IMG/VR virus record: IMGVR_UViG_3300046786_000272
Coordinates: 1-14,061 of that record
DNA from: a virus
Lineage: Duplodnaviria > Heunggongvirae > Uroviricota > Caudoviricetes
Direction: 5' to 3' (one strand)
Length of the DNA stretch: 14,061 bases
Each line of letters begins with the position of its first letter. Position 1 is the stretch's first letter. Below the pieces are notes generated by a model, which was not told where the DNA came from, ran no database searches, and saw only the letters and a program-made list of their open reading frames with translations. The position numbers and the translations under genes are program-made. Shown in pieces: positions 4,288 through 10,141 of this stretch.

Positions 4288-5049
4288 ATGAAAATCAATC
4301 AAATTATCAATGAAACTACTACTGCGGGGTCAGTAGCAACTGTTTCAAAACCCTTAGGTGAAGTGCAAACACGCACTCAAGTTGCAGGTCTACAGCCAGC
4401 AGAAAAAATCATGAAGGGTTCGACAAAGAAAAAAGGTCCTTATGCTAATAGCTTAACTGAAGGAGCTGTAAAGCAACTATCAATGGATCTTAAAGAATTA
4501 AAAGACGAAGAATTCAAAAAGAAGTACAAGATGACTAAGCAGGAAGCTCGTAAAAACTTATCTGCTAAACCTGAACCAGTACAAGAAGCTAAACTAGAAG
4601 AAGAAGATATTATTCTAGTACCCGGTAGAGGATCTAAACGCAAGACTGGCTTTGTTCCTCGCGGTCAAAGTCGAGTAGACCATGAAGTTGAAATGGCTCG
4701 CAGTGATGTTTTAGCTACAATTAAAAATGCAAAAGCAATTTATCAATTGTTAAAAGACCGTAGTGAAGACGAAGGACTTGAAGGTTGGGTACAAGAAAAA
4801 CTAATCAAAGCAAATGATTACTTAAATGCTGTCAAAGAATATTATGACGAAAAGATGATGGAAGAACTCCAAGGCGCCGGCGTCATTGCAGGTGGGCCAG
4901 CATATGAAGGTAAAAAAGTTGACCGCATGGTTAAGCATATTGAAAAGAGTGAAAAGAAATTAGGTCACTCTAAGAAAGAAGCAGAGAACATTGCATGGGC
5001 AACTGCTAACAAGCGTGGCATGTTAGATAACAAGAATAAGAAGAAATAA
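4288..5049 (+). CDS. Modular hypothetical protein, probable internal head (capsid cargo) protein; C-terminal basic ChaB-like motif
   Basis: The N-terminus MKINQIINE resembles the T4 internal-protein capsid-targeting sequence MKTYQEFIAE. Modules are separated by LTE, VQE and MEE/AYE. It ends with KKEAENIAWATANKRG. The CDS is well supported; the function is inferred. Confidence 0.7.
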   Translation: MKINQIINETTTAGSVATVSKPLGEVQTRTQVAGLQPAEKIMKGSTKKKGPYANSLTEGAVKQLSMDLKELKDEEFKKKYKMTKQEARKNLSAKPEPVQEAKLEEEDIILVPGRGSKRKTGFVPRGQSRVDHEVEMARSDVLATIKNAKAIYQLLKDRSEDEGLEGWVQEKLIKANDYLNAVKEYYDEKMMEELQGAGVIAGGPAYEGKKVDRMVKHIEKSEKKLGHSKKEAENIAWATANKRGMLDNKNKKK

Positions 5050-6280: not shown

Positions 6281-7794
6281 TGAGAGCATTAGACTTAACT
6301 AGAAAACAATCTATTTTTGAAAGTATCGGTAGAGGAGATACATATTTTAGCACATGGGAACGTGAGATTCATCCTACATTGTGTGAGATGGCTTTAAACC
6401 CTACGCAGATTGACCAGATATTTTCAACAGTTCAACAAAACGCAGGACGTAGTATGTTGGGCAGAGCTACTGATGCAGTCGGAGCAGCCAAAGATAAAAT
6501 CAGTGATGCGTGGTTCAATAAGTTTGGTGGCATGTTACAGAATAGTGCACCAGTACAAGGATTTGATGACAAGTGGGAATCTATCAAAAGTAGTGTCGCT
6601 ACTAAACATCCTGAAATAGCCGCTAAGTTAGCAAAGTACGGAGAGTACGCTAAGAACAATCCTAAGATGCACAAGTTCCTGTTAGCAATTGCCGGATCTA
6701 TTGCGGCGTCATTAGGTGTTGCATTAGCAGGTGGAGTTGGAGCTAGTGCGTTAGCAGTAGGTACTGGTGCAGGTATTGCAACTGGTATCATCAACATTGC
6801 TGATAGATTATTACAAGGTCAAAAAGCATCTACTGCTATTGGACGTGGTGCAACAGCAGGTGCAGTTGCAGGATTAACTGCAGGTGGATTGTCTAAAGCT
6901 AAAGAAGCATTGAGTGCGTTAGGTGCAACTAAGTTTTTAGATAGCGGTGTGGGTATGATTAATAACAATGGCACAACGTTCTATCTAAAACCAGAAGACA
7001 TGGCTGCATATCACGAAGGTCAAAAAGTAGCCAATGCTCTGTTAAGAAATGCTAGTATAAATGATTTGGGAGCCGCAATGGATGCTTCCGCGGCAGCAGA
7101 TGCGGCTAATTGGGCTAAGACTTTAGCAAAGATTGGGTCTGAAGCATATCAACAAGAAGCAATACGAGATATGGGAACTATTACAGAAATCCCACCCGGT
7201 GCAGTTGGTGACGCGGCTAATGCAGTAGCTTCATTGCTAAATTCAATTGGACCCGCTTTATCATCAATTGCAGGTCAAGCTGCCGGCGGCTCTAAGCCAT
7301 CTGCACAAAAAGTAACAGAAGGCCAGCTTAATGAGTTATTTGGAATGACTGGTAACAAAGTTGATGCATCTAAATTGAAAGCGGCTTGGGAAAAAGCAGG
7401 AAGCCCTACTGACAGTGTTGCACTCGGTAAGTTTCTAACAACGCAAGGTATATCAAGTCCGGCAGTTACATCAGCGTTCGCACAATTGAAACTACCGGAT
7501 CCATTTGCGGCAGCGCCTGTAGCTAAACCAACGGCAACTACAACAAGTCAACCTACAGCACCAGCTACAACAGCACAACCAACGGCAGCTACAGCAAGTC
7601 AACCGACAGCACAACCTACAACGCCTGCACCAACATCAGCAATTGGTCAAGGCATTGCACAATATAAGCCTGGTCAACAAGGCGTTAATCCAGAATTGCA
7701 AAAGAGATTGGCTGCACGTAAAGCAGGTAAGCCCCAATATGCGGCAAACTTAGAAGAAAACAGATTAAGAAAGCATAAGCATGTTATCAGATAA
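6280..7794 (+). CDS. Hypothetical virion/ejection-type protein with Gly/Ala-rich hydrophobic (glycine-zipper) segment and Pro/Thr/Ala/Gln-rich tail
   Basis: TAATG coupling to the upstream gene. Hydrophobic stretch FLLAIAGSIAASLGVALAGGVGASALAVGTGAGIATGII (from 6676). QPT repeats near the C-terminus. The function is inferred. Confidence 0.7.
   Translation: MRALDLTRKQSIFESIGRGDTYFSTWEREIHPTLCEMALNPTQIDQIFSTVQQNAGRSMLGRATDAVGAAKDKISDAWFNKFGGMLQNSAPVQGFDDKWESIKSSVATKHPEIAAKLAKYGEYAKNNPKMHKFLLAIAGSIAASLGVALAGGVGASALAVGTGAGIATGIINIADRLLQGQKASTAIGRGATAGAVAGLTAGGLSKAKEALSALGATKFLDSGVGMINNNGTTFYLKPEDMAAYHEGQKVANALLRNASINDLGAAMDASAAADAANWAKTLAKIGSEAYQQEAIRDMGTITEIPPGAVGDAANAVASLLNSIGPALSSIAGQAAGGSKPSAQKVTEGQLNELFGMTGNKVDASKLKAAWEKAGSPTDSVALGKFLTTQGISSPAVTSAFAQLKLPDPFAAAPVAKPTATTTSQPTAPATTAQPTAATASQPTAQPTTPAPTSAIGQGIAQYKPGQQGVNPELQKRLAARKAGKPQYAANLEENRLRKHKHVIR
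7525..7638 (+). repeat. Degenerate coding repeat of (S/A)QPTA units (PTS/A-rich linker)
   Basis: Translates as KPTATTTSQPTAPATTAQPTAATASQPTAQPTTPAPTS, with recurring caacc(t/a/g)ac units in the DNA. Confidence 0.75.
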
Positions 7795-8221
7795 TTTAAA
7801 AGTATTATTAGCGAGTACTCAATCATTCGCTATCAAGTCACAGAACTTTCACTGGAATGTTGAAGGTAGTAACTTCCCACAGTATCATGCATTCTTTGAT
7901 ACATTGTACAGTGATGTAAGTGCTACAATTGATCCTATTGCTGAATACATTCGTATTCTTGGTCATTATACTCCTGGTAGCTTAACACGCTATGCTGAAC
8001 TATCAATCATACAAGACCAAATTAAGATTCCTCGTGCTGAATTGATGTTTCAAGAATCATTGCATGATTGTGAACAGATGGGACAATTAGTAACAGCGAT
8101 GTTTGATGAAGCGGCGAACGAAAAGCAACACGGTATAGAAAACTATATGGCTGAACTACAAGACTTGTATGGAAAGAAGGCTTGGTTTATTCGTTCTATA
8201 TTAAAGAAAGAACGTGAATAA
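7781..8221 (+). CDS. dps: Dps family DNA-protection / mini-ferritin protein
   Basis: NFHWNVEGSNFPQYHAFFDTLYSDVSATIDPIAEYIRILG carries the Dps signature (HW, H, D, AE ferroxidase ligands). 146 aa. Confidence 0.92.
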   Translation: MLSDNLKVLLASTQSFAIKSQNFHWNVEGSNFPQYHAFFDTLYSDVSATIDPIAEYIRILGHYTPGSLTRYAELSIIQDQIKIPRAELMFQESLHDCEQMGQLVTAMFDEAANEKQHGIENYMAELQDLYGKKAWFIRSILKKERE

Positions 8222-8298
8222 TGCGTGAAAATGAATATCCAGTATATCCTGAAGATGATGGGTATGACACGTTTAAAAACCCATATAGTCCTGTATGA
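8221..8298 (+). CDS. 25-aa peptide MRENEYPVYPEDDGYDTFKNPYSPV (missed by the ORF track)
   Basis: The ATG overlaps the dps stop (TAATG, 8219-8223) and its TGA overlaps the next start (ATGA, 8295-8298), filling the gap exactly. Confidence 0.75.
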   Translation: MRENEYPVYPEDDGYDTFKNPYSPV

Positions 8299-9320
8299 GA
8301 GCAACAGAATTCATTACTGAAGAAGCAAAAGCCGCCAAATATAACGGCTTAGTTATGAAGTACGCCTTCAACGATAGTGCTTTGATAATGAAAGCATTTG
8401 AACAAGGTAGTCCAATTGCTTATGTTAAGTTTGTCAAAGAAGACAAAGAGTTATATCCACAGGATCTTTGGGTCAATGATGACTATCGCAACAAAGGCAT
8501 TGCTAAGTCAATGTATGACTATCTAAAGAGTGAAGGTTATGTCATCAATAGAAGTCACGACCAAACTAAAGCTGGCACCGGCTTCTGGGATAAACACCGA
8601 GGTGAAGATGCGTATGTTTGGGAAGATGAAGACGTAGATGAAGATATGTCACGTAGAGGCTTCTTAGGAGCATTAGGCGGCGCGGCTATGGCAGCCGCCG
8701 GATTAGATGCAGAAGCAAAACCTAATGCTATTAAACCTAAAACTAAATCACCTTCACAAGATGCTATTCAACAAGCAAAGAAGCAACAAAATGTTAAACC
8801 AGCATCACCTACAAAAGATCCACAAGCAGAAGCAATGTTGTATAGAACAGCAAAAGCTAGCGGAATGAAGGGTAGTGAGTTAGCACAGTTCTTAGCACAA
8901 ACAAAACATGAGTCTTGGGATCACAGCAGATTACAAGAGAAATCAATCGGTGATCCTAATCAGTACTTTGCTAAGAAGTATGATCCTACGTTAGCACCTA
9001 AGACAGCAAAGATTTTAGGTAATAAGCATCGAGGCGATGGTGCAAAGTATCACGGTCGCGGATTCATTCAGTTAACTGGTAGAGATAACTATCGCATGGC
9101 TAGTGAAGCATTGGGATTAGATTTATTGAATCATCCTGAAATAGCAAGTAAGCCAGACGTTGCCGCAAAGATTGCAGTGTGGTATTGGAATACAAGAGTT
9201 AAACCAAAAGTTCAAAACTTTGAAGATACAGTAGCAGTTACAAAAACAATTAACAATGCGATGTTTGGTTTAGAGGATCGACTTGCAAACTTTGTAGATT
9301 ATAAAAAAAGAGTAGCATGA
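8295..9320 (+). CDS. GNAT acetyltransferase-like domain + internal Tat signal peptide + GH19 (chitinase/lysozyme) peptidoglycan hydrolase fusion
   Basis: N-terminus MRATEFITE. GNAT motif A WVNDDYRNKGIAKSMYDY (8472-8504 core). MSRRGFLGALGGAAMAAAGLDAEA at 8646-8717. GH19 motifs FLAQTKHES, YHGRGFIQLTGRDNY and AAKIAVWYW. Confidence 0.88.
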   Translation: MRATEFITEEAKAAKYNGLVMKYAFNDSALIMKAFEQGSPIAYVKFVKEDKELYPQDLWVNDDYRNKGIAKSMYDYLKSEGYVINRSHDQTKAGTGFWDKHRGEDAYVWEDEDVDEDMSRRGFLGALGGAAMAAAGLDAEAKPNAIKPKTKSPSQDAIQQAKKQQNVKPASPTKDPQAEAMLYRTAKASGMKGSELAQFLAQTKHESWDHSRLQEKSIGDPNQYFAKKYDPTLAPKTAKILGNKHRGDGAKYHGRGFIQLTGRDNYRMASEALGLDLLNHPEIASKPDVAAKIAVWYWNTRVKPKVQNFEDTVAVTKTINNAMFGLEDRLANFVDYKKRVA

Positions 9321-10141
9321 AAAAAATTATAACAATATTACTATCAACATTATCATTAACGGCATCAGCATGGGAGCAACGTGCTCCCTTACCACCTCAA
9401 TCTTGTCAAGTACATAGTCCATATGGATTTGCACAAACGCAACGTCCTGCACAGCCGATCTGTCGTGAGGCTTATCTAGTTGCATATGACGCTCCTGTTA
9501 AAATTCCTGCTTATGTAGCGTATACATTAAAGCCAGAAAACGCATTAGGTTGCTTTCCGAGAACAAACGCCTTCGTGGCTGACCAATCATTAGGCGGTAC
9601 AGGTGCAAGACCTGACGACTATGCTGGTACAGGATACGACAAGGGACACGCGGCACCGGATGGGGACCTATCTTACACTCAGCAAGTTGAATATGAATCA
9701 TTCTTGATGACTAATATGTATCCACAACATGGTTCACTAAATCGTGGTATATGGAAATTACTAGAGACAAGTATACGCGGTTGGAGTGTACAGCGTAATC
9801 AAACGTTCACTATCTATGTTGGCGCATTCTACGCACAAAGTACAGAGTACATTGGCGCAAGTAAAGTTATTGTTCCTCATGGTTACTACAAGATTGTCAT
9901 TAATCAAGCAACAGGTGAAGTAGCAGGATGGGTATTCCCTCATACTAAACCTTATGTTAACTTAGGAACTGACTTAGTTAAGTTTCGTCATCCAATCGCA
10001 CAGATTCAAACAGTAGCAGGTGTTAAGTATGCATTCCCTAAGAATGCAAAAGAAGTGGCACCAGGCCAAGAATGGCCTGTTAACTACGGTGATTTGACTA
10101 AAGCTAAACGCGCCAAGTGCGGCGCAAATGCACAAGATTAA
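9317..10141 (+). CDS. Secreted DNA/RNA non-specific endonuclease (Serratia NucA/EndA-type, beta-beta-alpha-metal)
   Basis: Sec-type signal MKKIITILLSTLSLTASA. Motifs GYDKGHAAP, SFLMTNMYPQHGSLNRGIWKLLE and IVPHGYYKIV. ATGA coupling to the upstream gene. Confidence 0.92.
   Translation: MKKIITILLSTLSLTASAWEQRAPLPPQSCQVHSPYGFAQTQRPAQPICREAYLVAYDAPVKIPAYVAYTLKPENALGCFPRTNAFVADQSLGGTGARPDDYAGTGYDKGHAAPDGDLSYTQQVEYESFLMTNMYPQHGSLNRGIWKLLETSIRGWSVQRNQTFTIYVGAFYAQSTEYIGASKVIVPHGYYKIVINQATGEVAGWVFPHTKPYVNLGTDLVKFRHPIAQIQTVAGVKYAFPKNAKEVAPGQEWPVNYGDLTKAKRAKCGANAQD

Follow-up and report, generated by a model that had tools for sequence, protein, structure and literature searches.

The stretch of DNA analysed here (the window) spans 14,061 nucleotides and opens an IMG/VR viral contig of 82 kb (IMGVR_UViG_3300046786_000272). 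Its open reading frame (ORF) at 8295-9320 translates into 341 residues with no internal stops, and combines a short leader, a module of ~100 residues that closes with VWE, an acidic stretch (DEDVDE), a twin-arginine (RR) signal, a linker and a GH19 domain, in that order. An earlier reading of the sequence alone, called here the original prediction, had described a cryptic twin-arginine translocation (Tat) signal inside this protein. Translation confirms its layout and coordinates: residue 118 (Met) starts at 8646, directly behind VWEDEDVDE and a single Asp, and is followed by S-R-R-G-F-L and by A-E-A before K-P. The parts of the locus are as follows.

8295-8321, plus strand: leader MRATEFITE (residues 1-9), a tag resembling a capsid-targeting sequence (CTS) and ending I-T-E.
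8322-8624, plus strand: small GNAT-like acetyltransferase module (residues 10-110), ending V-W-E, assigned from PF00583, an AlphaFold2 model and Foldseek.
8625-8642, plus strand: acidic joint DEDVDE (residues 111-116), with putative prohead-protease sites after E110 (VWE) and E116 (VDE).
8643-8717, plus strand: Tat-type signal peptide (D117-A141), with SRRGFLG at 8649-8669, a hydrophobic region (h-region) F123-L134 at 8661-8696 and AEA at 8709-8717.
8718-8819, plus strand: Lys/Pro/Gln-rich variable linker (residues 142-175), weakly conserved in alignment A1 and of low to moderate pLDDT.
8820-9320, plus strand: GH19 muramidase domain (residues 176-341 and the stop codon), with Glu206 at 8910-8912 and Glu215 at 8937-8939.
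9317-10141, plus strand: neighbouring gene for a non-specific endonuclease (PF01223, E 6e-38), whose start overlaps the GH19 stop as ATGA.

The GH19 domain matches PF00182 (E 2e-14, 54.3 bits against a cut-off of 25.5) and the endolysin family phrog_181 (E 1e-34). Its top Foldseek matches in the PDB are phage GH19 endolysins (7r6s, 4ok7, 9ms7 and 9eoi, probability 1.00), and it has the catalytic Glu pair of GH19 enzymes, about nine residues apart (H-E206-S and L-Q-E215). The domain is predicted to be of the phage muramidase type, with peptidoglycan, or possibly chitin, as its putative substrate. The N-terminal module is a weak GNAT match when residues 1-117 are searched in isolation (PF00583, 28.7 bits against a cut-off of 20.7). 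It has the acetyl-CoA loop R65-N-K-G-I-A70, and its best 50 Foldseek matches in the PDB are all GNATs, at TM-scores of only ~0.45; as modelled, it is a truncated GNAT core of ~100 amino acids with the GNAT fold. In the AlphaFold model of the protein, the N-terminal module is folded (pLDDT ~80-87), residues 87-150 are disordered and the GH19 domain exceeds a pLDDT of 90.

A Tat signal is defined by a twin arginine within S-R-R-x-F-L-K, a Gly-rich, weakly hydrophobic h-region of at least 12 residues and a c-region with A-x-A (PMC7317946). S119-R-R-G-F-L-G125 matches six of the seven motif positions. The uncharged stretch G122-L134 (FLGALGGAAMAAAGL) has a Kyte-Doolittle mean of 1.68 and leads into D-A-E-A and K-P, giving both an h-region and a c-region, with a predicted signal-peptidase cut before K142, after A139-E-A141. 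The pattern [ST]RR.[FLIVM][LIVMF] occurs only once among the 176 ORFs of the 82-kb contig. The signal of the window protein is not N-terminal, as it starts at residue 117/118 of 341. It would become N-terminal after the cleavage proposed below, and it is so outright in minimal homologues of 211-237 amino acids. The premise that Tat signals work only at or near an N-terminus was too strict, as internal ones are known (PMC5449189, PMC7317946).

RR[GA]FL with its h-region is kept in 94 of the 121 nearest GH19 homologues in a large protein collection. Among all sequences gathered, RRGF[LA] and the h-region recur in 109 distinct homologues, and the linkers behind them diverge freely. Poor conservation of the RR motif had been named in advance as grounds for giving up the idea of a signal; with these 109 homologues, the motif does not refute it. 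A small-x-small site follows the h-region in 94/109 RR-type proteins and in 23/24 proteins of the GWK type, which implies export from the cytoplasmic side. The GWK type is a sister clade in which G-W-K-D-W and a Gly/Ala stretch replace the RR segment, with the same small-x-small ending before Lys. Therefore, a signal-like element before GH19 is the constant feature, and RR one of its two forms.

The minimal homologues carry the signal directly behind a 9-residue leader, with the first Arg at residue 13. Two of them (P0125 and P0126) are 92% identical to the C-terminal half of the window protein, and by this comparison the window gene is a minimal form whose leader and signal have been separated by an added GNAT module. 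Another minimal form (P0150) reads S-S-R-G-F-L for S-R-R-G-F-L, a natural variant that has lost the twin arginine but kept the remainder of the signal. In the non-minimal homologues at least one soluble module comes before the signal, which is found at residues 41-188 among the proteins of the protein search and at residue 391 in an IMG/VR protein (L073).

A scan for the motif with a list of downstream domains, as first envisaged, was run on IMG/VR; it looked for DNA that encodes E-D-x-[ST]-R-R-G-F-L-G and did not require any similarity to GH19. It returned 53 loci, and 33 of the 37 distinct proteins were of the GH19 type, some of them divergent. One of the other four (L078) has other cargo; the remaining three have no h-region and probably match by chance. 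We also considered the RR signal as a portable tag for many cargo types, which it mostly is not; the scan indicates that signal and GH19 travel as one unit. The non-GH19 protein (L078:2-1111, minus strand) opens with the leader-like MNIIELMEG, followed by V-D-E, a full RR signal ending in AQA before Arg, and an uncharacterised domain of >300 amino acids; its N-terminus resembles an ORF of G000 (38049-39680, minus strand) that has no RR motif. No phage TatA or S26 signal peptidase was found in five records, and a search for an SLT domain found none.

The leader MRATEFITE shares EFI.E with MKTYQEFIAE, the leader of T4 IPII and IPIII, and the 19-residue leader of T4 IPI has I-T-E as its last residues (all read from NC_000866). 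A review assigns targeting by the T4 CTS to its residues 4 and 7, and processing by gp21 to its residues 8 and 10, I and E (PMC9026906, section 2.6). MRATEFITE has the form of such a leader, ~10 residues ending in [LI]-x-E, and this comparison upholds the earlier description of it as capsid-targeting-like, here of the T4 type. Among 143 distinct family proteins, 133 begin with M-[RK]-x-x-[ED]-[FILVM]-[FILVMA]-x-E. The codons of the leader vary synonymously between genes and genomes, and therefore selection acts on the peptide.

Behind this leader, modules are shuffled. The N-terminal 115 residues recur at 75-92% identity in >200 metagenomic proteins with different C-termini, on contigs of up to 362 kb, and the modules found in the family are GNAT (also in extra copies), ParB-like, HD, kinase-like and DUF6934-like. 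Two disparate domains (GNAT and GH19) in one chain, together with family-wide shuffling, are the marks of a polyvalent protein. A Pfam search of ORF 8295-9320 found no built-in peptidase domain. Leader-like peptides with hydrophobic-x-E at their end (MKINQIINE and MRITEILAE) also open other genes, at 4288-5049 of the window and at 39677-40102 (minus strand) of G000, and the strict MR..EF[IV].E DNA pattern gives only 1-4 matching genes per complete relative. In the regions before leader genes (8235-8294 of the window and upstream of loci L001-L031) a Shine-Dalgarno (SD) sequence is usually absent, the first codons are nearly always ATG AGA GC, and the genes often begin at, or overlap, the preceding stop codon (ATGA).

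A further regularity lies at the joints between modules. Module starts were defined by the motifs that follow the leader and were then located at internal positions. [LIVM]-x-E stands directly before the module start in 110/111 GNAT, 24/24 DUF6934-like and 87/87 kinase-like cases, and before the signal start in effectively 15/15 RR-type and 13/13 GWKDW-type cases, with a background of 1.7% per residue. In a larger GH19 set, it precedes the RR signal in 91 of 94 proteins, and position -1 is Glu in 93 of 94 despite Asp-rich linkers. The T4 form of the prohead-protease motif is L/I-x-E. Proteases of this type cut after Glu within a short motif (PMC5694885, PMC9026906), and the joints match that rule in sequence. 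A cut at [LIVM]-x-E is predicted to leave the N-terminus D-[LIM]-[ST]-R-R-G-F-L whatever lies upstream, and cleavage at the joint would be the most economical common mechanism for all of the signal positions. In the GWKDW clade, net charge averages -4.1 over the 12 residues upstream of the signal (background 0.1, standard deviation 1.8), which would make for a poor signal if left uncut. Upstream charge varies among the RR-type signals; in the window, the ten residues YVWEDEDVDE have a net charge of -7.

A candidate protease is encoded by relatives. For head genes we compared four related records (233-374 kb), of which three are complete by CheckV. A Peptidase_S77 protease is present in 4/4 (E 1e-22 to 6e-28), and in all four its neighbours are a major capsid protein of the gp23 type (E ~1e-99) and a scaffold-like gene with a coiled coil. 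The protease-like site of the original prediction thus gains on two counts, as [LIVM]-x-E is found at every module joint and relatives carry a candidate gp21-type S77 enzyme to cut it. The gp23-type capsid protein of one relative (G001; L098:1471-2667, minus strand) has several [LIV]-x-E in its first 43 residues, and L-A-E before Ser ~40 residues ahead of the conserved GVQPM block. We take this distance to resemble that of the T4 gp23 maturation cut (~40 residues), consistent with the same protease rule.

The GH19 gene is probably not the main lysis enzyme of its phage, judging from gene content. Each complete relative has a second GH19 gene without leader and signal (phrog_181, E ~1e-74), which makes the copy with leader and signal an additional muramidase. 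In one relative (G003), the second GH19 gene is followed by Rz-like and Rz1-like spanin candidates. Holin-independent lysis, at first entertained as a main role, is weakened by these separate genes. This lysis-cassette-like run of genes in G003 (L042:1028-2365, minus strand) encodes a 209-aa soluble GH19 endolysin, a coiled-coil membrane protein (weakly Rz-like) and an 84-aa lipoprotein (LLSGC lipobox, Rz1-like). The next gene there (184 aa) has a 58%-identical homologue at 78834-79364 of the window contig, with no cassette beside it. No soluble endolysin homologue was found on the window's contig, a null that is uninformative at 23% completeness. In some relatives, ORFs of 920 and 752 amino acids also contain a separate lysozyme domain of the tail type.

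The layout of the protein, the extent to which it is conserved and the presence of T4-type head genes in relatives are observed, and from them we infer a route with packaging, cleavage, ejection, a path of export, a timing and a benefit from early wall loosening. First, the 9-residue leader would direct the precursor into the core of the assembling prohead, as the T4 CTS does. The gp21-type protease would then cut after the Glu of [LIVM]-x-E, at E9 and at E110 and/or E116, giving a small GNAT acetyltransferase and a pre-muramidase that begins D-M-S-R-R-G-F-L. Both would be ejected with the DNA into the cytoplasm of the next host. There, the exposed Tat-type signal would take the GH19 enzyme through the host Tat (or Sec) translocase, the signal peptidase would cut between AEA and KP, and the mature enzyme of ~200 amino acids would act on peptidoglycan from the periplasm early in infection, with the GNAT staying in the cytoplasm. 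We give an even chance to this reading, in which the protein is packaged cargo, a head-protease cut exposes the signal and the next host exports the muramidase. The more general idea of a two-step address, capsid first and then the periplasm of the next host, with the export signal masked until head-protease trimming, we hold tentatively, at slightly less than an even chance. The unmasking idea of the original prediction is retained, and is strengthened by the leader, the joint motif, the protease of the relatives and the conserved RR; its internal start, and holin-independent lysis as a main role, are the parts that are not supported.

Several points weigh against packaging and unmasking. We know of no obvious benefit of an early periplasmic muramidase. 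In the minimal forms, leader plus signal already has ordinary N-terminal Tat geometry and no cleavage is needed. The joint counts share ancestry and are not phylogenetically independent, although what lies upstream of the joints is very diverse. A search of the window's own contig found no S77 protease; CheckV puts this contig at only 23% complete, and the null is uninformative because about three quarters of the genome lie elsewhere. The pairing of the GH19 gene with the nuclease gene, overlapping as ATGA, is conserved at many related loci. The two curated hidden Markov models (HMMs) for Tat signals stay below threshold, though they are the best matches (TIGR01409, 14.2 against 16.7 bits; PF10518, 18.1 against 22.7 bits). 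Conservation is a stronger argument than these HMM scores, and it argues that the RR motif is more than chance. Finally, internal Tat signals can work without unmasking (PMC5449189).

The chief alternative is that the signal works in the producing cell, uncleaved by any phage protease, entering Tat or Sec as a loop or hairpin. The signal peptidase would free the GH19 enzyme across the membrane, the leader and GNAT part would stay in the cytoplasm, and the product would be an accessory secreted muramidase, acting with a co-expressed secreted nuclease, for example on debris, on superinfecting phages or in priming lysis. The neighbouring gene fits this. The endonuclease at 9317-10141 has an ordinary N-terminal Sec-type signal and no leader, and may serve in the periplasm to exclude superinfecting phages or to clear debris; its ATGA overlap and conserved synteny with the GH19 gene suggest that the producing cell's periplasm may be where the two enzymes act. 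The RR at residue 13 of the minimal forms is normal for Tat, and the loop mechanism of thylakoids also counts in its favour. RNA-library contigs from two metatranscriptome libraries match the window at 100% identity (8149-8488, 8554-8704 and 8745-8895); transcript starts are not readable from them and DNA carry-over is possible, and their spanning of the intergenic region through the gene start, and of the GNAT-signal joint, favours secretion by the producing cell weakly. Known systems also tolerate Tat signals that are internal or carry an N-terminal extension (PMC5449189, PMC7317946). However, export from the producing cell does not explain why the protein keeps a leader shared with cytoplasmic-type cargo, why a constant [LIVM]-x-E abuts the signal, or why signals lie behind soluble modules (to ~390 residues in L073) or strongly acidic stretches. 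We regard it as possible but rather unlikely.

It is also conceivable, though improbable in our view, that the Gly/Ala segment is a membrane anchor of the signal-anchor-release (SAR) type, or of an ejection conduit, and not a cleaved signal. The muramidase would then be tethered to the inner membrane, or inserted from the periplasmic side during ejection, and would aid DNA entry. Gly/Ala-rich, weakly hydrophobic segments are typical of SAR domains. Lysozyme domains of polyvalent virion proteins have been proposed to breach the wall at entry (PMC5512222), and gp47 of SPN3US has a predicted transmembrane helix after its protease maturation site (PMC5694885). Against an anchor, the small-x-small site is conserved (the 94/109 and 23/24 given above), the twin arginine is conserved although an anchor alone would not need it, and some relatives have a separate tail-type lysozyme domain.

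Least probable is a translation restart at Met118 that would give a stand-alone Tat-signal muramidase beside the full-length protein. The window gene and some close relatives do have an ATG at this place (8646 in the window), and starts without SD are normal in the family. Among 94 homologues, however, 49 have Leu at the equivalent position and 24 have Ile (78% together), against 21 with Met; Met is absent from this position in the GWKDW clade, the anti-SD duplex before 8646 (-1.0 kcal/mol) is weaker than at 65% of random in-frame internal ATGs of the contig, and the RNA-library contig 8554-8704 crosses the site, a weak point. That no convincing SD precedes Met118 had been noted at the outset and agrees with this energy; because the annotated start also lacks one, as is usual in the family, the SD test carries little weight by itself. 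As judged from these alignments, the conserved mechanism is not internal initiation, and this option of the original prediction is not supported.

The window phage is probably an uncultured giant freshwater phage, a T4-like jumbo phage of ~360 kb. Its contig has a GC content of 38.7% and a CheckV-implied genome of ~360 kb, and near-identical DNA occurs in metagenome runs from freshwater; several of these runs may be those from which the window itself came. G001 shares with the window the synteny dps-GH19-nuclease-methyltransferase-Bug. The Dps/ferritin-like gene upstream of the GH19 gene (7781-8221; PF00210, phrog_3636) is syntenic with it in many relatives, with variable leader-tagged cargo genes between the two at some loci. 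We tried to read the host from the neighbouring Bug-family gene, which gave only a match of 23% identity, in a Beijerinckiaceae metagenome-assembled genome, and this was uninformative. The window as a whole has no megablast match among cultured phage genomes, and tblastn of the 341-aa protein against them matched the GH19 half only. By S77 protease, the nearest cultured phages are Sinorhizobium phage Phosso (73%), Vibrio phage 2.275.O (349 kb) and PA5oct. None of these three phages has a match to the window GH19 protein or to the strict leader pattern, and therefore no ready laboratory model is at hand.

If the two-step address is correct, proteins injected by phages are not confined to the cytoplasm, and a phage could reach the periplasm and wall of a new cell within minutes through the host Tat or Sec system. 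The grammar of leader and [LIVM]-x-E would also allow one to read, from sequence only, what giant uncultured phages pack and where each piece is destined to go. The layout further offers a simple, testable construct for protease-gated export signals. Even if the enzyme acts in the producing cell, a second muramidase that is not the lysis enzyme, bears a Tat-type signal and is paired with a secreted nuclease would be an undescribed accessory function, and one that concerns abundant freshwater jumbo phages.

The separate elements of this layout are already known, as CTS-tagged cargo in T4, as polyvalent proteins with lysozyme domains (PMC5512222) and as secreted or SAR endolysins. In the literature we found no description of a Tat or Sec signal joined to a capsid-targeting leader or to a head-protease site, and the layout was not found in the literature on Tat-dependent endolysins, on Tat and proheads, or on ejection proteins with signal peptides. 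A two-step address of capsid and then periplasm appears not to have been described for any virus-delivered protein. The polyvalent proteins of Iyer et al. 2017 (PMC5512222) resemble the present family in stringing together lysozyme, ParB-like and RelA/SpoT-HD domains and in probably being delivered with DNA. Their processing is ascribed there to built-in metallopeptidase domains, whereas processing here would be in trans by the head protease, and signal peptides, transmembrane segments and twin-arginine motifs are not mentioned in that paper (0 occurrences).

Secreted and SAR endolysins (P1, 21, Mu and N4; PMC9239132, bioRxiv 10.1101/2025.11.12.688109) likewise cross the membrane by host machinery without a holin hole, and have a weakly hydrophobic, Gly/Ala-rich segment. 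Their signals are N-terminal, Sec-dependent and on the lysis endolysin, whereas here the signal is of the RR type and often internal, its cleavage site is conserved and it sits on a second GH19 outside the lysis cassette; the window protein lacks the uncleaved N-terminal anchor on a lysis endolysin that marks SAR endolysins. Dual Sec-Tat membrane proteins such as the actinobacterial Rieske protein (PMC5449189) also carry a twin-arginine signal far from the N-terminus. In Rieske proteins, however, the upstream part consists of Sec-inserted helices and the signal stays as an anchor, whereas here the upstream modules are soluble and a cleavage site follows.

In the bipartite presequences of thylakoid-lumen proteins, the stromal processing peptidase removes the transit peptide and unmasks the Tat or Sec signal for the lumen. 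The likeness lies in two serial targeting signals, the second exposed by proteolysis and then removed by signal peptidase. Here, the first compartment would be the capsid and the second the periplasm of another cell, an analogy and not a homology. Finally, T4 IPI, IPII, IPIII and Alt, which bear a CTS, are processed by gp21 and enter the host together with the DNA, share with the present family a short leader ending in [LI]-x-E and hypervariable cargo behind a constant leader, and the related genomes carry the T4-type S77 protease and gp23-type capsid protein. Unlike the T4 internal proteins, the cargo here, known from sequence alone, is multi-modular with a protease-type site at every joint, and one of its modules bears a putative host export signal, which no T4 internal protein is known to have.

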